Positions 1,846 through 17,900 of a DNA stretch of 64,000 nucleotides are shown here, in pieces. Positions within the stretch are counted from its first letter, which is position 1, and every line of letters starts with the position of its first letter. The stretch comes from a virus (Duplodnaviria; Caudoviricetes). Location: IMG/VR virus record IMGVR_UViG_3300036783_000113, positions 17,484-81,483 of that record; one strand, 5' to 3'. A program made the translations under genes and the position numbers. The notes under the pieces are model-generated. The model made no database searches. It was not told the DNA's origin and saw only the letters and a program-made list of their open reading frames with translations.

Positions 1846-2068
1846 ACAATCTTTAAAATCATATGGAGAGAACGATAATCGCCCCTTCATCCGAATTAGA
1901 GAATTTAAATTAGAAGATGAAAAAGATTACGCTGCAAAAGAAGAACGTGTTCAAAAAGAGAAAGAACGTATCGCTAAAATAACTGGTGATGATACTAAGA
2001 ATATTCATTTACAAGATAATTGGGGTAACTCTGAAGTATATGATTTCGCAAATCGCCCTCTCCGATAG
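1808..2068 (+). CDS. Hypothetical protein
   Basis: GGAGGT RBS, ATG 1808. Confidence 0.55.
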   Translation: MQRAKLQKEEKFKQSLKSYGENDNRPFIRIREFKLEDEKDYAAKEERVQKEKERIAKITGDDTKNIHLQDNWGNSEVYDFANRPLR

Positions 2069-2177
2069 GACAGGCTGAAGTTGAAGTTGATATTTTGTCG
2101 AAAAGTATTTTAAAGCAATAAAGCCTATTGTATCGGTAAGGGATGACACTTGGAAATAATTACTAAGGACAAATTAC

Positions 2178-2206
2178 TTGACAAGTTTAAAATAGTCCTG
2201 TACTAT
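2178..2206 (+). promoter_or_regulatory. sigmaA promoter P1 of the non-coding locus
   Basis: TTGACA-17-TACTAT. Confidence 0.75.
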
Positions 2207-2314
2207 TAAGAGTATAGACTATCGCGGTTAAGTTATATCGTAAATAATATATAATTCTATTTATTACTTTACAAGTTAAGTTATTAAAGAGTTAATATAA
2301 CTTTAACAAAAGTG

Positions 2315-2343
2315 TTGACAAGTTATTTAATAACTGTTAAGAT
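2315..2343 (+). promoter_or_regulatory. sigmaA promoter P2 with palindromic spacer
   Basis: TTGACA-17-TAAGAT with TGn; the spacer contains the palindrome AGTTATT-T-AATAACT (2321-2335). Confidence 0.75.
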
Positions 2344-2447
2344 TAACTTATAAACATTAAACGTTTATGCCATGTGTTTTCTCTCTTTTCATATCTTGGA
2401 TCAGACTTTTCTACATCGGTTATACGAGTGGCTGGTGTAGAAATAAT

Positions 2448-2524
2448 GGCGTTTGTAGCATTGTAGGAAATGCACCCTAAGAATCCCTTAGGTAGATGGT
2501 GTTCGACTCACCCTTACGTCACCA
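2448..2524 (+). tRNA. tRNA-like element 1 (8/4 fold, non-canonical anticodon loop GAAUCCC)
   Basis: D arm GCAT/ATGC with GG; T loop TTCGACT; encoded ACCA 3' end; anticodon-like stem CCTAA/TTAGG lacking U33 and purine 37. Confidence 0.65.
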
Positions 2525-3160
2525 AAATAAACACATTAAGTTGTCTTTTTTGACTGTTAGGAAAGACTAACATTAAACTATAAAATCTTAGTCATGTTGA
2601 GATAGTTTAGGCGAAACCCTAAATAAATCATATCCGTCCTACTGCGATATTAAAAAAGAAGGCAAACATGACGTGGCGACACTGTTCGCGGACACGATAA
2701 GAAATAAACAGATGTCAGTAAAGACTCGAAAATCCAAGAGAAGGAAAACTCACGTACAGAAAACCCGAAAACGACAATTCGTAAAAATGGTTCTTGTTCA
2801 CAAAGAAAAGTAGCTTTAAAACCTGTTAAGGCAAGAAACATTAATTCTTCCGAATTTAACTTCCGGTATACGTCCTGCATGTTCTGACAGGAGGTTGCGA
2901 AAACTTTATATCAACTACAGTAAATAAGATTTGGACATGGTTTTAATTACTGGTTGATCCTACGGTTAAAGTAAAAGGTTAAAGAACCGTCTAGTCCCTA
3001 GTATAAAGTTCAGGTTTAAATGCGAACGTACTTTATACGTGAAAACTTTCCAAAACGTTATTCGCATACGGTTAGTGGTTATCGCATTAAGTTGAAAGGT
3101 TATGAGTGCGATAAAAAATAATTGTTTGTTTTCGTTGAGCCAACTTAACTGTTGGCAATA
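2525..3160 (+). ncRNA. Candidate large structured ncRNA
   Basis: No convincing ORF; at least 10 hairpins found by eye (incl. a GCGA tetraloop and multibranch junctions); lies between two tRNA-like elements downstream of strong promoters. Confidence 0.5.
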
Positions 3161-3161
3161 T

Positions 3162-3237
3162 GGGTTGTAGTTTAAATGGGAAGAACAAATTCTCTCAGTG
3201 AATATACGTGTTAGGTTCGAATCCTGACCAACCCACC
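3162..3237 (+). tRNA. tRNA-like element 2 (6/6 fold, anticodon UCA, C33)
   Basis: Acceptor GGGTTG/CAACCC; D arm GTTT/GAAC; loop TCTCAGT; 6-bp T stem with TTCGAAT; A discriminator followed by CC. Confidence 0.7.
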
Positions 3238-3241
3238 TCAT

Positions 3242-3305
3242 GTAGGATTATGGTATTGCTTTTACGTCATGGTTTTGCAAGGTGGTTCGACTCCACTATC
3301 CTACT
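3242..3305 (+). tRNA. tRNA-like element 3 (D-armless)
   Basis: Perfect acceptor GTAGGAT/ATCCTAC and T arm GGTGG-TTCGACT-CCACT; only 32 nt between them, with no D stem. Confidence 0.6.
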
Positions 3306-3435
3306 ACTATCATGGTGAGAAATCACCACCTAACCCCCTTAGGTTCGTGAGTTAAATTGTTTTCATTTTAAATTTCTCCTTTCTAACTAAGTAAAAAGTA
3401 AGCATTGGTCTTAATTGGCTGGTGCTTATTTTTTT
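3306..3435 (+). ncRNA. sRNA-like 3' module with C-rich loop and anti-RBS tract
   Basis: GAAA-tetraloop hairpin 3313-3328, CCCCC-loop hairpin 3329-3343, pyrimidine tract 3360-3384, then a terminator. Confidence 0.4.
3399..3435 (+). terminator. Intrinsic terminator ending the non-coding unit
   Basis: 12-bp stem (with G-U pairs) followed by a T7 tract. Confidence 0.7.
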
Positions 3436-3477
3436 GTAATTTTTGGTATTAATGGTTTTTTGAAAGGAAGTGTTAAT

Positions 3478-3891
3478 ATGGCTGAAGTTACAAATAAACT
3501 AAAAGCTAATTTAGAAAAGACTCCAAACGGACAGGAATTACTGGCTGTAGAAGATGTTGACGGTGTTAAGGCTGTACCTATGGTGTTGGTTACTATCGAT
3601 GTAAACGGTAAGTATACTTATGCTGGATCATTAGGTGGAGGTGGCGGTTTAACTGCTGAAGAAGTTAATACGATGTTAGCTGGTTATTCTAAAACTGACC
3701 ACAATCACGATTCTGTATACGCTAAAACATCTGCTTTAAGTGGTTATGCTACAACTGCTAATTTGAACGCTAAGTTAACAGCAAACAAAATGACTAATAT
3801 TCCTAATAGTGCCGCTACTGATGTAACTGGTGCTGTAGCTGATATTAATAAAATATTAGCTGGATTAAAAACTGCTGGAATTATGCTTTAA
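3478..3891 (+). CDS. Head fibre/decoration-like protein
   Basis: C-terminal ATDVTGAVADINKILAGLKTAGIM resembles the head-fibre motif; HNH metal-binding-type motif as in fibres. Confidence 0.55.
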   Translation: MAEVTNKLKANLEKTPNGQELLAVEDVDGVKAVPMVLVTIDVNGKYTYAGSLGGGGGLTAEEVNTMLAGYSKTDHNHDSVYAKTSALSGYATTANLNAKLTANKMTNIPNSAATDVTGAVADINKILAGLKTAGIML

Positions 3892-3972: not shown

Positions 3973-4839
3973 ATGTCAGAAGTAAAACAGTATTTAACTA
4001 AAGAAGGTGAAGTATTTGAAACTTTAGTTGAATTAGGTGGAGCAAATCCGAAGGACTATGATTTAACATTATTACAAGCTGCTGAAGCGCGCGTTATCAA
4101 AGGTACAAATAAAACGTTACAAACAGCATTGAATAGTTTATCCGGTTTTAAGAATTTCAAGAATGACGGAGTTAAAGTTAAGGATGCTAAAGATGCTGAA
4201 TTCGATGAATACGGATTAAGTGACTCTTTTTATACTCAACAACAAATGAATTATATAAGAAGTTCAATCGATAAATACCGCAATGGTTACGATATCGCTA
4301 CACCTTATCAAGAGACTGGTGTTATCCAGCTTGCTAAATTCGAATGGACAATCACTGAATTAGGAACTAAGATTGCTCAAAACCCTAAGAAGGATGATAT
4401 AGCAAGTTTAAAGATGATACAAGAATTACACGCTAAACTTTCTAATGATTTAAAGTTAACAACAAGACAATCTGTAGGCGATGCTAATTCTGAAGATATG
4501 TTCACTAACGCGTGTATCGATTATGAAAAACGTTTTAGAGGTGAGTATTTCGCATTTGAAGAAGTTGAAGACAGGGATGCGATGCAAGAAGTAATGATTA
4601 AGTATGCTGATCGTATAGTTGATTTTATGAAAGAGTCGTCAACTTATTTCCACTTCAGAAAGAAAATCGCTGATGAATTAGATGTTAAGCCGAAAGAACT
4701 TAAACAAATCGGACTATTTACTATAGAAGAGTTTTATGATTTCCTTCAAATAAATGCCGATAGAAAAATGATTCAAGATAAGAATGATTTAACGTTCGAT
4801 GATAACTTTAAAGATAAGGGTGATTCGGATGGAAATTAA
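3973..4839 (+). CDS. terS: Terminase small subunit (putative)
   Basis: Immediately upstream of, and overlapping, TerL; helical protein. Confidence 0.55.
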   Translation: MSEVKQYLTKEGEVFETLVELGGANPKDYDLTLLQAAEARVIKGTNKTLQTALNSLSGFKNFKNDGVKVKDAKDAEFDEYGLSDSFYTQQQMNYIRSSIDKYRNGYDIATPYQETGVIQLAKFEWTITELGTKIAQNPKKDDIASLKMIQELHAKLSNDLKLTTRQSVGDANSEDMFTNACIDYEKRFRGEYFAFEEVEDRDAMQEVMIKYADRIVDFMKESSTYFHFRKKIADELDVKPKELKQIGLFTIEEFYDFLQINADRKMIQDKNDLTFDDNFKDKGDSDGN

Positions 4840-6457
4840 ACCAGTAGTTGGTCATGTTTCTTCTATAGATAAGAATAGACGGCAATATATACGTGAAGTT
4901 AGAAAAGGTGTAAGGCGTTCTCAAATTGACCTTATCGAATTCATTCATTATTACCGTTCACATCCGGTAGAAGCTTGTTATGATTTATTAGGCATTTCAT
5001 TAATGCCGTATCAGAAAGAACTTCTTCGTAATTCGTGGGGAAAAGCATTCCCTCTTTGGGTTATGAGTCGTGGATCAGGTAAATCATATCTTGCTGCAAT
5101 TGATATGGGACTGAATGCTATATTGTTCCCTAACATGCGTATCGGTATTATTGCTCCTTCTTATCGTCAGTCTAAATTCTTATTCCTTAAATTTAAAGAG
5201 GAAGTATACAACAAGTCAAAACTGTTAAGAAAATTCGTTACTGGTAATATGAAAGAAGGTAATGAAGAGTGTAAAGTTCAATTCTCAAATGGTTCATTTA
5301 TTCAGGCCTTACCTTTCGGTGATGGTTCTACGATTCGTGGTCAGCGTTATAATACTATTTATATAGATGAATATGCTGCAATTGACGAACAGATCGTACG
5401 ACTTGTAGTTGAGCCGATGTTAACTGTTAAACGTGGATTCGACCCTGATAATCCTGATGATTCAGAAGGAAACCGTGTTGTAATATTTTCTTCTGCTTAT
5501 TACACTTGGAATCATTTTTATGAAGCGACTCAACGTTACTTGAGCCGTATTAAAGGTGGGGATGATGATTATTACGTAGCTATAGTCGATTATCACATGC
5601 CTTTAAAATATGGATTATACGATGAAAGAGCAATCACAAAAGCGAAGAAAGATAATACTGAAGGTGACTTTTTAATGGAGTATGGTTCTGTATTCCAAAG
5701 TGAAAGTCAAGGCTCTTGGATTCCTACAATGGTATTTGACAGAAGGGTTGTATGGGATCAGGATTTAGAACCGCAATTAGTTGGTAGTAGAAATAAGGAA
5801 TACGGTTTATATTGTGACTTCTCTATCTCACAAAAAGATTCAGCCGATAATACAACGTTCCTTATTTGTGAACTTGAACCAACTGGAAAGAATAAACCGA
5901 TTTTAGTTCGCGGTGAAAAAGGATTAACTTTAGATGCTATCCACGCGCGTATGAGAAAGTATGATGCTGATTTCAACTTACGTCATATTTGGATGGATGG
6001 TGAGAAATTAGGATTAGCTCTTAAAGGTTATTTAGAAAAGCCATATACAAACCCTGAAACTGGTGAAGAACAAATGCCGCTACTTGATATAGAAGGAAAT
6101 AATCCTGATGTAATTGGTAAGAAGTTCGTTAAGTATTTCCGACATAGCGCTGAAAACAATCACAACATGGGACTTGCTGCAAAACGTATGGTTGAACAAA
6201 GACGTATAGTTATGCCTGTATTACAAGATCGTCACGAAAACCCTGACATCGAATTAGCATTCCTTGAGTTATTAGCAATGAAGAAAGAGGTTACGCAAAT
6301 CAAAGCTGTACCGAGTGGAATGTACTATAAGTTTGAACAGGAGAAAAAGTCAACTCTTAAACGTGATAGATGGACGGTATTTGCTTATAGCTGCATGGCA
6401 TTAGAGGATCGTTTACACGGTGAAGAAGACGACGATTACTATTTCGCGGTTGTCTAG
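4829..6457 (+). CDS. terL: Terminase large subunit
   Basis: Walker A SRGSGKS, IRGQRYNTIYIDE Walker B, and a C-terminal nuclease with acidic residues. Confidence 0.92.
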   Translation: MEIKPVVGHVSSIDKNRRQYIREVRKGVRRSQIDLIEFIHYYRSHPVEACYDLLGISLMPYQKELLRNSWGKAFPLWVMSRGSGKSYLAAIDMGLNAILFPNMRIGIIAPSYRQSKFLFLKFKEEVYNKSKLLRKFVTGNMKEGNEECKVQFSNGSFIQALPFGDGSTIRGQRYNTIYIDEYAAIDEQIVRLVVEPMLTVKRGFDPDNPDDSEGNRVVIFSSAYYTWNHFYEATQRYLSRIKGGDDDYYVAIVDYHMPLKYGLYDERAITKAKKDNTEGDFLMEYGSVFQSESQGSWIPTMVFDRRVVWDQDLEPQLVGSRNKEYGLYCDFSISQKDSADNTTFLICELEPTGKNKPILVRGEKGLTLDAIHARMRKYDADFNLRHIWMDGEKLGLALKGYLEKPYTNPETGEEQMPLLDIEGNNPDVIGKKFVKYFRHSAENNHNMGLAAKRMVEQRRIVMPVLQDRHENPDIELAFLELLAMKKEVTQIKAVPSGMYYKFEQEKKSTLKRDRWTVFAYSCMALEDRLHGEEDDDYYFAVV

Positions 6458-14979: not shown

Positions 14980-17900
14980 ATGAACGAGAACAATCGTATA
15001 GGTATTCGGTTTGAGGTAAATACAAAAGAGTTAGCGGAAATGAACAAAGCGATTGCTACAATTGATAAGTTCAATCAAGCTTCAGCAAAAATGGCACAAT
15101 CAATGAGTCAAACTGCTACTGCAAGTACAAAAAGTGAACAGGCAATCAAGAACACGACTCAAAGAATCCAAGAAATAGAAAGAGCAACTAGTTCTTTGCC
15201 TAACCAAATGAAAGCTAGTTCTCAAAGCATAGATAGAATGGGTCAAGCTGTAACTAAATTACAAAACGATTTAAAAGGTTATGGTCGTGATGTAAAAGTT
15301 GCTGTAGATTCTAACGGCAAAATGAACGCTAGTTTCAAAGATTCACAAGGTAATATAGTTAAGATGAAAGCTGAATTAGATCAGACTGCAAACCGTTTTG
15401 TTAACTTTTCAAATTCAATACAAACAACTAACGGTCATTTAAAACAGCTGGCTCAAGCTGAAAAAGCTGCTGCTCAAGAACAAAAGAAAATGGCTCAAGA
15501 AGCTGCTAAAGCTGCATCTGAAATGAAGAAGAATGAACAACATGCTGAATCTTTAACTCGCGCATATAATAAGTTACATCAAGGATTAGACATATCAGAA
15601 GTTTTACGTAGAAACGGTGGAACTTTTAATGTTTACAATAATGCTGTTAAAGGTAATAGTGAAATTGTACGTGCAAATATTGATCGTCACGGTAAATTCA
15701 CACAAACATTGCGTGACCAACAAGGTGCTTTAACAACTATAAATGGTTACTATAACCAATCACACGGACGTTTGGTTCAGTATTCTGAAGCTGTATCTTC
15801 AGGTAATAAAAAAGTTGCACAATCAATGAATGAAACGACTGCTGCCGCAAAAACAGGAGCTAGTGCAATGGGAGAGTGGGCTAACCAAACAAGAATTGCA
15901 TTTGAACGTATGATCCAGTGGACTGCCGTTACGACAGTATTCTTCCAAATAATTAACGGATTAAAAGCTGTCGGTGCAACTATAGTCGAAGTTGACCATC
16001 AAATGACTAATCTTAGAAGGGTTATGAATGAAGATCAATTTATGGCTGGAACTTCTGCTGTTCAAGGTTTTGAACGTATGTTAAAAACTGCAACTAGTAC
16101 AGCTCAAGAATTAGGGGTTACAGTTGTAGGCGTTCTTGAATCGATGAACGAATTCGCGAGACAGGGTTTTGATGAAAATACAATTAACTATTTATCTCGT
16201 ATGGCAACTGTATTTTCTGCTGTAGCCGATATCGATATGTCAACTTCTGCTTCATACTTAACTTCTGCTATGAAAATATTCAACTTGGAAGCTGAAGAAT
16301 CTATCAGAATAGTCGATGAATTGAATCAGGTCGATAACGATTATGCCGTGAGTTCTGATGACTTAGCGCAATCATTAGCTCGTGCTGGTGGTACTGCAAA
16401 TGCGTTCGGTGTATCTATGGAGCAAGTTTTAGGTCACACTGTAGCAATTGGTGAAGCGACTCGTGAATCAGGGGCTATCGTTGGTAACTCATTAAAAACA
16501 ATTTACTCTCGTGTTACAACTGTTGATTCTGCTATTAGTGCATTGAAAGAAGTTGGCGTAGATGTATTTGATCCGATAACAAAAGATTCGAAAGACGTTA
16601 ACGTTATCTTAGGTGATTTAGCTGGTAAATGGGATGGTCTTTCTAAAACTCAACGTGAAAACATTGGTGTAACTTTAGCTGGACGACATCAATTATCTCG
16701 TTTCATGGTATTAATGGATCGTTGGGGACAAGGGGTTGCCGCTACTGATACGGCTTATAAAGCTGCTGGTTCAGGTATGCGTGAGTATGATAAATACATG
16801 CAATCAATTGGAGCAAATATGAATTTAGCTATTGCTGCATTCCAAAAATTAGCTATCGCGCTAGGTGAAGCTGGTATTGGTGCTGCTATGATTGTCGCTC
16901 TTAAAGGTGTGACAATGTTCACTGAAGGAATAACTGCAACTGTAGAAAAGTTAGGTGCTTTATCATTTGCTGTTCCTGCTGTAGTAGCTGCATTAGGTTA
17001 CTTAGCTGTTGCGTATGTAACTACTTCTAGGGCTGCTACTGCTGCTGGAACTTCATTAGCTATTCCTATGAACAAGGCTGGTATGGCAGTTAACAACTTA
17101 ATGAATTCAATGGGTGCATCTTCAATTGCTGCTGCTAATATGGGAGGGGCTGTTTCAAAGTTAACAACTGGCATGAGAGCGTTGGCAATGGCCACAATAA
17201 TGAATCCGTTCGTTTGGGTAGCTGCTGCTGTAATAGGAATTACTGCTTTAGTCGGTGGTATGTCTCAAGCGAAACAAGAAGTAGAATCTATGGCTGAATC
17301 AGCTCGTAATGCCGAATATGAATTCGACCAATTGAACAAACGTATCAAAGAGGGTAATCCCCAAGATATGCGATACGATTTGAATAAATTGGATCAAATG
17401 AGAGATAAACTTAAAGAAGTAGCTGATGGTGCTAAGTTTTCCGAAGCTGCATTTAATAACCAAAAGGCCTCAATGGAAGGTAGTGCTAATGCTAGTTTGA
17501 ATTTAGGTTTCCAATTAGCTAATCTTAAAGATAAAATAATGGCTAACAATAACGGTACTGCAACTTGGTTTGAACGTTTGCCTGAAGATTTAAAGAAAAC
17601 AGCTGCCGAATTAGGTGTGACGTATGAAAAGGGTATGACATTCAATGAATTCATTTCTGCATTAGATGAAAAATCTTCTCGTGCTACTGATTCTTATAAT
17701 GAATTAAATAAGAAAATTAAAGAAACTGGTAAACCTGAAGGTATTCTTGAAGCTGCTAAAGCTATGAATGACTTATCAGAGAATACTGACGAAGCGTTTA
17801 ACTCATTTTCTAAAATCGCTGGTTTCAAAGATGAAATGATTAATTCTTTAAAAGAACAAATGACTTACATTCAATTAATGTCAAAAGTTCCTGCTGAACA

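Follow-up and report, generated by a model that had tools for sequence, protein, structure and literature searches.

Two covariation-supported RNA modules embedded among tRNA mimics in a Bacillus cereus-group phage

The tract between positions 2525 and 3160 of a 64,000-nucleotide (nt) stretch of phage DNA (the window, positions 17,484 to 81,483 of the 81.5-kb IMG/VR record IMGVR_UViG_3300036783_000113) is, judged by comparison with its homologues, a real non-coding, folded RNA, read on the plus strand, in which compensatory substitutions have preserved the helices. With a probability of roughly 0.6, the tract is the centre of a non-coding plus-strand unit of ~1.1 kb (about 2345-3434), at a place where related phages carry a tRNA operon, and would belong to a polycistronic RNA that is cut at tRNA-like elements into separate stable RNAs. 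Two parts of the tract, designated here element B (2574-~2715) and module C (2858-3116), would be modular and not portions of one giant RNA. They are compact folds supported by covariation and containing candidate tertiary contacts, and neither of them matches an Rfam family.

The homologues were collected by blastn with positions 2069-3440 of the window as the query against a phage collection, and the matches came from Bacillus cereus-group phages only. The closest relatives are Basilisk, Bak1, Bak6, Bak10, PBC4, BSG01, pW4 and BCPST, all of them Sejongvirinae (75-96% identity per block, ~80-85% per record), and by these matches the window is from a Basilisk/PBC4-like phage of this subfamily. 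In all the Sejongvirinae relatives the locus is preceded by a block containing dUTPase, an RsfA-like regulator and small open reading frames (ORFs) and followed by head and packaging genes, and the locus, between matching flanking genes, contains a pair of genuine tRNA genes, either those for Trp and Asp or those for Asn and Trp. ARAGORN found 0 tRNAs in the 64-kb window; the phage of the window has lost its canonical tRNAs. A block map of the tract against seven relatives, together with a full alignment with L011 (an IMG/VR contig, the closest relative of the same layout), divides the tract into five parts, 2525-2573, 2574-~2715, 2716-2857, 2858-3116 and 3117-3161. Two further contigs, L042 and L043, are more divergent.

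Compensatory changes were found in 4/4 hairpins of element B. In the MAFFT alignment of the element 94.9% of the cells pair, and six pairs have changed on both sides, against 2.1±1.1 in shuffled alignments (1/500) and 0-1 in slid controls. Module C is 81-87% identical in all Sejongvirinae-type loci, with the divergent L042 and L043 added later; in its alignment A6, 94.7% of the cells pair and 11 pairs have changed on both sides, whereas shuffled alignments give 4.3±1.5 (0/500) and slid controls 0-3. In hairpins 4 and 6, L042 and L043 bring additional compensatory pairs. The pair count on the alignment of module C fitted to a covariance model is inflated by one spurious row. Covariation in homologues, on which a preliminary description of the tract made from the letters of the window had made its claim of a structured RNA depend, is therefore present: in both B and C the helices are kept by compensatory change beyond the shuffled and slid controls, as is characteristic of structured non-coding RNAs under selection.

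All nine helices quoted in that description could be located in the sequence, and six of them are conserved in relatives, namely 2606-2623 (P2 of element B), 2873-2892, 2962-2990, 3001-3038, 3079-3114 and 3139-3156. Five of the six show compensatory changes, the helix at 2962-2990 being so nearly invariant that it carries no covariation. The GTG-GCGA-CAC hairpin with its TGAC/GTCA closure (2669-2717) is contradicted by the homologues, in which it is not kept and the conserved fold is CGUG-GCGA...UCGC...CACG (2672-2696). The two remaining helices, 2555-2572 and 2791-2837 (TTCTTGT/GCAAGAA), lie in DNA found only in this phage.

Folding stability of the whole 636-nt tract is only mildly better than that of shuffled sequences (z-score of -2.16 on the plus strand and -2.77 on the minus strand). 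Stability thus fails to single out either the tract or its strand, and therefore the evidence for a fold is the covariation. The strand is indicated by the helices themselves, since the conserved ones contain many U-G and G-U pairs and switches from G-C to G-U, which would be A-C mismatches on the opposite strand, and by module C, which folds with a z-score of -3.57 on the plus strand against -1.88 on the minus strand. Hence, the RNA is read from the plus strand and a DNA cruciform is unlikely.

The view that the tract is poor in ORFs and non-coding, also part of the preliminary description, was upheld. The only ORFs in it are 2673-2813 on the plus strand and 2650-2880 and 2966-3241 on the minus strand, and these three, the longest of the tract, matched no Pfam or PHROG family. 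The conserved part of the tract has stops in every frame in all relatives, and its substitutions lack codon periodicity. Coding readings of 46, 76 and 91 amino acids were accordingly rejected for want of family matches and conservation. Small coding sequences have been annotated over the homologous DNA in BCPST (BCPST_089 and BCPST_088 'capsid protein', L006 2690-2954), Basilisk (gp29, L007 2594-2758) and TP21-L (gp53, L009 835-975). They are mutually unrelated as proteins and overlap conserved RNA hairpins or tRNA mimics, and for this reason are probably mis-annotations.

Comparison with Rfam by cmscan placed the tract in no known family. The whole window gave 0 matches at gathering scores, and at E<=10 positions 2000-3500 gave only sub-threshold tRNA-type matches and noise. 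Under these relaxed conditions there was no match to the covariance models of GOLLD (RF01998, with its conserved 3' domain), ROOL (RF03087, a multi-pseudoknot fold of about 580 nt) or OLE, nor to that of the bacterial Y-RNA-like YrlA. Transfer-messenger RNA (tmRNA), RNase P RNA, group I and II introns, 6S RNA, signal recognition particle RNA and known ribozymes had no Rfam match either, and the ARAGORN search for tmRNA was negative. A tmRNA or two-piece tmRNA made of mimic X (described below) plus B was rejected, ARAGORN and Rfam being negative and the mini-ORF unconserved. A lead to RAGATH-27 (RF03100) was also discarded; it scored 21.2 bits at 2550-2633 against the 76.1 required, its 3' hairpin is not formed and the likeness resembles a promoter plus start region. 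No genuine RAGATH-27 member was found in five related phage records.

The tract was said to be flanked by tRNA-like elements that would define its ends. Tracing them in relatives confirmed tRNA-shaped bounds at 2446-2524 (X) and 3162-3237 (Y), and a third element of this kind, Z, follows Y. None of the three combines, as a canonical tRNA does, a full cloverleaf, a 7-nt anticodon loop with U33 and a score above threshold. X folds as a cloverleaf devoid of the D arm and is matched by neither Rfam nor ARAGORN. Its homologues in pW4, L011 and two Caeruleovirus-type phages, including Xoo-sp15, keep the acceptor and the variable arm through compensatory changes. Y (3162-3235) reaches 25.1 bits on the Rfam tRNA model, the threshold being 29, and is negative in ARAGORN. 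The L011 counterpart of Y has kept its acceptor, D-like and T arms but has a longer branched insert where the anticodon arm would be, which is evidence against a decoding role. Z shows a compensatory change of the acceptor stem in L011 and is present or absent depending on the phage. By their folds, X, Y and Z are tRNA mimics that keep the acceptor/T-arm half with defective decoding arms, and not canonical tRNAs. The acceptor/T-arm half is the part recognized by RNase P, RNase Z and the CCA-adding enzyme. Mimics and structured RNAs have been kept here after the loss of every decodable tRNA, and therefore the value of the operon cannot be codon supply.

The composition of this part of the unit differs among the relatives. 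PBC4-type phages have a different mini-tRNA of ~61 nt at the site of Y. BSG01 has at the position of Y one more tRNA-shaped element (GGGUUGUAAG...CCAACCCACC; L004 about 2440-2540, alignment A8 columns 195-272) than PBC4, so that the number of mimics varies even between very close phages. A 'tRNA-SeC' has been described downstream of two tRNAs in Basilisk and Bak phages (PMC6145125) and is probably Y.

Each of the two modules has a distribution of its own among phages. Element B, with its ~140 nt, is 83-87% identical to a block in 17 records of Bastillevirinae (Herelleviridae) myophages, where it stands free of C and starts right at the 3' end of a tRNA-Asp, and it is without counterpart in most Sejongvirinae (Basilisk, Bak10, PBC4, BSG01, pW4 and BCPST), which have C without B. 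L011 and L038 both have tRNA-Asp first, then mimic X, then B and C. When viral, genome and metagenome contigs were scanned for exact patterns of B, the element turned up in phage contigs of the B. cereus group and nowhere else, other matches being due to chance, and plasmids gave no match. The 3' half of module C (2955-3113) was made into a covariance model, R1, which matches 10/10 Sejongvirinae-type loci at 145-198 bits and has no match in five other phage records searched in full, those of Janet, W.Ph., Bastille, Xoo-sp15 and TP21-L. A scan of viral contigs with a 30-mer of module C retrieved one contig, and a protein-anchored search added two more divergent loci. As traced by these alignments, element B has moved between unrelated sipho- and myophages of the B. 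cereus group while staying attached to the tRNA operon, and this mobility argues for a selectable function travelling with the RNA itself.

The preliminary description had proposed the tract as one large RNA of ~630 nt, and the comparison gives no support to this. The joining pieces 2525-2573 and 2716-2857 are absent from L011 and the latter is unstructured, segment 2716-2860 folding no better than shuffles (z-score of +0.72). No inter-module helix with more than one compensatory change was found between the window and L011, a two-sequence test of low power. In that comparison four helices carry at least two compensatory changes; three are hairpins of 18-37 nt and the fourth, which may be due to chance, joins 3317-3323 with 3428-3434, 117 nt apart, inside the 3' module of the unit. 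Contiguous, co-occurring domains tied by long-range pairings, which define the large ornate RNAs, are thus not seen. The unit that every relative has conserved between a tRNA and a tRNA mimic consists of module C and the 3' extension, together about 300-450 nt. The modular reading is preferred because B and C differ in phylogenetic distribution, B is free-standing in the Bastillevirinae and the pieces that join them are not conserved.

Several points weigh against this reading. The homologue sets are small and closely related, each module being represented by nine distinct sequences, which limits the power of the covariation statistics, and the shuffle control ignores kinship. Taken by itself, element B does not exceed shuffled sequences in stability (z-score of -0.60). 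The candidate pseudoknot of B (2591-2597 with 2666-2672) and the candidate kissing loop of C (2878-2884 with 2933-2939) are supported by conserved or invariant complementarity, and the changes within them, one from G-C to G-U in the former and those from U-A to U-G in the latter, are not compensatory. Transcription, the processing sites and the number and size of the mature RNAs are inferred from sequence; a literature search found no report of transcription of the locus, the paper on the Basilisk group (PMC6145125) mentioning only tRNAs. In GOLLD a variable 5' region is joined to a conserved 3' region, sometimes with tRNAs in the linker (bioRxiv 10.1101/2024.12.08.627333), so mosaicism alone is insufficient against one large RNA. 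Mimic X, finally, encodes its CCA, and a clean cut at 2524/2525 is hence not assured. An encoded CCA disfavours RNase Z in B. subtilis.

That the ~640 nt between the mimics, or the whole ~1.1-kb transcript, adopts a single and possibly multimeric fold, as a GOLLD/ROOL analogue in a class of its own, C being the conserved core and B an optional 5' domain, is unlikely. GOLLD and ROOL are phage or prophage RNAs found near tRNA islands and GOLLD multimers are built by kissing loops, and here loops with palindromic CAUG cores are complementary to one another, 2878-2884 to 2933-2939 inside C and 2590-2598 of B to 2934-2942 of C, while GCGAAAAC (2897-2904) could pair with the invariant 3128-3135 and close module C. 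However, this closing helix shows no covariation and is interrupted in Basilisk, Bak10 and pW4 by an A-C mismatch that lacks compensation, the inter-module helices have at most one compensatory change, the linker 2716-2857 is neither conserved nor structured, each module occurs without the other, and no large RNA in Rfam, GOLLD and ROOL included, is matched even at E<=10. A rather more speculative and improbable variant would make the ~1.1-kb sigma-A transcript a new class of modular large phage RNA. As in GOLLD, the 5' part (tRNAs, mimics, B) would be exchangeable and the core (C, mimics and the 3' module) conserved; pairing in trans between the CAUG-centred loops (GUCAUGUU/AACAUGAC, CAUGUUC/GAACAUG) would give an RNA-only multimer or dock B on C, and the mimics would be handles for host tRNA-binding factors and not mere cut sites.

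A cis-acting leader of the late (structural) operon, controlling read-through at the terminator 3393-3434 into the head and packaging genes by, for example, processive antitermination or a regulated terminator, would agree with the position of the unit. The terminator ends ~45 nt before the first ORF of the structural side (ATG at 3480 in the frame 3415-3891), with the large terminase subunit at 4799-6457, and the boundary has the same position in all relatives. This role is nevertheless quite improbable, in that the genuine tRNA genes within the unit of the relatives fit an operon of gene products better, element B lies inside the tRNA arrays of the Bastillevirinae where such a boundary is missing, and known antitermination RNAs gave no Rfam match. 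It is very doubtful that the tract is a functionless remainder of a decaying tRNA array together with scars of homing elements. The canonical tRNAs have indeed disappeared, the locus is a hotspot of insertion and deletion, with an HNH endonuclease insertion in related phages, and 2525-2573 and 2716-2857 resemble unconstrained filler; but the helices of B, C and the mimics are kept by compensatory substitutions across lineages 13-25% divergent, 20-nt loops are invariant while their stems vary, and B is highly identical between sipho- and myophages that otherwise share little in the region. A DNA-level element such as a packaging site or replication origin, suggested by the position of the tract 1.6 kb upstream of the large terminase subunit and by the PBC4 record being cut just downstream of the region, or a minus-strand gene, suggested by the equally good whole-tract folding energy of that strand, is scarcely credible given the G-U pairs of the helices (A-C on the opposite strand or in a cruciform), the unconserved minus-strand ORFs without family matches and the location of B far from the terminase in the Bastillevirinae.

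If the unit yields several RNAs from one precursor, as preferred here, host RNA polymerase would transcribe it from sigma-A-like promoters and the host tRNA-processing enzymes would cut the precursor at the mimics, or at the real tRNAs in relatives, RNase P acting at the 5' sides of the mimics and RNase Z or 3' exonucleases at their 3' sides. B and C would be released as stable RNAs, together or apart, the former with a compact pseudoknotted fold and the latter as a kissing-loop fold of six to seven hairpins. RNAalifold on element B favours the long-range helix between the P1 loop and the strand that precedes P4, and the loop of P1 probably pairs with that strand as a pseudoknot stacking on P4. 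The invariant loops (CAUGUU/AACAUG, the UUAAAG repeats and GAAAGGUUAUGAG) would engage a protein or RNA partner, with host translation, RNA metabolism or tRNA-directed defence as the likeliest targets. The repetition of the UUAAAG and AAAGGUUA motifs suggests a multimeric RNA-binding protein as the partner. In B, the invariant stretch resembles a ribosome-binding (Shine-Dalgarno) sequence followed by a start codon (AAGAAGG-N5-AUG, from 2668); it opens only 2-12 codons that are not conserved, which is why it is not taken as a gene, and it suggests mimicry of a translation start region.

That clusters of phage tRNAs can conceal additional stable RNAs is a long-standing observation, RNAC and RNAD (species 1 and 2 RNAs) of phage T4 being the classic case, and these are the closest kind to the RNAs described here. 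They are two small RNAs of unknown role transcribed from the tRNA region of T4 (PMC3014915, PMC9697503). Like them, B and C are located within a tRNA unit between tRNAs or tRNA-like elements; the T4 RNAs are small and stable and are released from a tRNA-containing precursor. In contrast, there is no sequence relationship, the host group differs, the expression is predicted here, and the canonical tRNAs have gone, leaving mimics to flank the RNAs. With about 260-300 nt, module C is also larger than RNAC and RNAD, which have roughly 120-140 nt. GOLLD and ROOL share with the tract their occurrence in Firmicutes phages and prophages, often beside tRNA islands, and their wealth of hairpins, pseudoknots and kissing loops, but the units conserved in the phage, of about 140 and 260-300 nt, are far shorter and independently inherited, and no long-range helices joining them were found. 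In the 3'-end module of MALAT1/mascRNA and in bacterial YrlA, with its tRNA-like domain, the ends of an adjacent non-tRNA RNA are set by RNase P or RNase Z, which an acceptor/T-arm minihelix attracts, and the spacer of a tRNA operon may act as an RNA in its own right, as with 3'ETS-leuZ of E. coli. The phage unit would resemble these systems in its predicted processing. The hosts (laboratory strains of B. cereus and B. thuringiensis) and their phages are culturable.

Table 1. Features of the non-coding unit and its surroundings (window coordinates; sites and folds are predictions)
Feature	Position	Strand	Remarks
Sigma-70-like promoter candidate (TTGACA-17-TACTAT)	2178-2206	+	10/12; inside a block 77-84% conserved in all relatives; predicted
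Sigma-70-like promoter candidate with extended -10 (TTGACA-17-TGnTAAGAT)	2315-2343	+	10/12; likely start of the non-coding unit; predicted
Leader hairpin, 13 base pairs (bp)	2409-2442	+	Kept in L011 with 2 compensatory pairs
tRNA mimic X	2446-2524	+	Acceptor stem, no D arm, anticodon-like arm (loop GUAGGAA), long variable arm, T arm, encoded CCA
Insert known only from this phage	2525-2573	+	Absent from L011; holds hairpin 2555-2572
Weak promoter-like site	2550-2579	+	9/12
Element B, mobile structured RNA module	2574-2715	+	Nine distinct homologues (alignment A5)
Element B, P1	2585-2590/2598-2603	+	U-A to C-G, C-G to U-A, U-G/C-G/U-A at single positions
Element B, P2	2605-2611/2618-2624	+	G-U/G-C/A-U and U-A/C-G
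Element B, P3	2630-2634/2646-2650	+	A-U to G-C
Element B, P4	2672-2679/2686-2689 plus 2693-2696	+	Sequences vary; outer and inner stem always formed
Element B, candidate pseudoknot	GUCAUGU 2591-2597 with ACAUGAC 2666-2672	+	Invariant, perfectly complementary strands; sole change G-C to G-U in L011
Element B, 3' border in Janet type			tRNA-Leu
Element B, 3' border in Bastille and OTooleKemple52			Extra 85 nt, then tRNA-Leu
Element B, 3' border in W.Ph. and Crookii			~60 nt, then strong hairpin and U6 (-16.9 kcal/mol, z-score of -5.65)
A-rich linker without stable fold	2716-2857	+	Absent from L011; for the most part peculiar to this phage
Module C, conserved structured RNA of Sejongvirinae	2858-3116 (extends to 3160)	+	Alignments A6, A9 and A10; RNAalifold and per-sequence folds
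Module C, hairpin 1	2873-2877/2888-2892, loop CAUGUUC 2878-2884	+	GUAU.CG extension in relatives; three differing stem sequences all pair
Module C, hairpin 2 (long)	2910-2958, loop GGACAUG 2933-2939	+	Missing from the helices of the preliminary description
Module C, hairpin 3	2962-2990	+	Almost invariant; loop of UUAAAG-type repeats
Module C, hairpin 4	3001-3038	+	
Module C, helix 5	about 3048-3058/3068-3080	+	
Module C, hairpin 6	3081-3088/3105-3112	+	20-nt loop UUAAGUUGAAAGGUUAUGAG invariant
Module C, kissing-loop candidate	CAUGUUC 2878-2884 with G[G/A]ACAUG 2933-2939	+	Pair is U-A or U-G depending on the variable A/G
3' extension of module C	3117-3161	+	Invariant GUUUGUUUUCGUU at 3124-3136; hairpin 3139-3144/3151-3156 (GCCAAC/GUUGGC)
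tRNA mimic Y	3162-3237	+	Acceptor, D-like and T arms kept; anticodon-like loop UCUCAGU (centre UCA, C at position 33)
tRNA mimic Z	3241-3306	+	Reduced D arm; 7-bp acceptor and T arm; tRNA-Sec model 18.5 bits (weak)
3' small-RNA-like module	3306-3434	+	GAAA hairpin, CCUAA-CCCCC-UUAGG hairpin, terminator hairpin 3393-3434; kept in 8/8 aligned relatives

The ends of the unit were predicted by scans (Table 1). Transcription from two consensus promoters had been proposed, and two 10/12 sites are indeed predicted upstream of the tract, the one at 2315-2343 being nearly identical in L011 (overall identity 78%); the scan as a whole was not enriched over shuffles (14 sites versus 12.1). L011 has a genuine tRNA-Asp between its leader hairpin and X. 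At the other end, a terminator-like hairpin predicted at 3393-3434, downstream of the tract, closes the unit. The 3' module that includes it folds with a z-score of -3.97 and its GAAA-loop hairpin has a compensatory change in L011. In the same module the CCUAA-CCCCC-UUAGG hairpin, with its C-rich loop, is invariant and is followed by a CCUUUCU tract and then by the terminator.

Within module C the two halves resemble a duplication, each consisting of GAAAACUUU, then a hairpin and then a hairpin with AAAGGUUA in its loop. In pW4, examined for covariation in the kissing loop, the 5' domain is different. An alternative pairing of 3104-3112 with 3056-3065, given by RNAalifold on A9, is disfavoured by L042, in which one substitution has its compensating partner in the local hairpin and not in the alternative helix. 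The relatives have an extra hairpin-rich insert of 60-110 nt ahead of the 3' extension, whose hairpin at 3139-3156 keeps its pairing with differing sequences in Bak10, BCPST and L011.

The 3' border of element B is also variable among the Bastillevirinae. In the Wphviruses a 13-bp hairpin and U6 stand after B (W.Ph., L013 586-620, matching Crookii, L012), followed by a promoter for the next gene; this hairpin was read directly from sequence and fold, the consensus terminator scan leaving it unflagged. The extra 85 nt between B and tRNA-Leu in Bastille (L014 534-623) and L015 form two hairpins, and the first loop of this piece (GGAUACGUCCUG) agrees over 11-12 nt with the beginning of module C (GGUAUACGUCCUG, at 2865-2877 of the window), a likeness that may be the remnant of a link between B and C or may be due to chance. 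An A-rich motif of 50-60 nt (AAAGACUCGAAAAUCCAAG.GAAGGAAAAC.CACGUACAGAAAACCC), overlapping the start of the linker at 2706-2766, is common to the window, the temperate phage TP21-L (L009 801-863), pW4 (L005 2104-2151) and the metagenomic relative L042 (1849-1896). In TP21-L the motif is annotated inside 'gp53', in a different frame, and from its distribution it looks like another small mobile non-coding piece.

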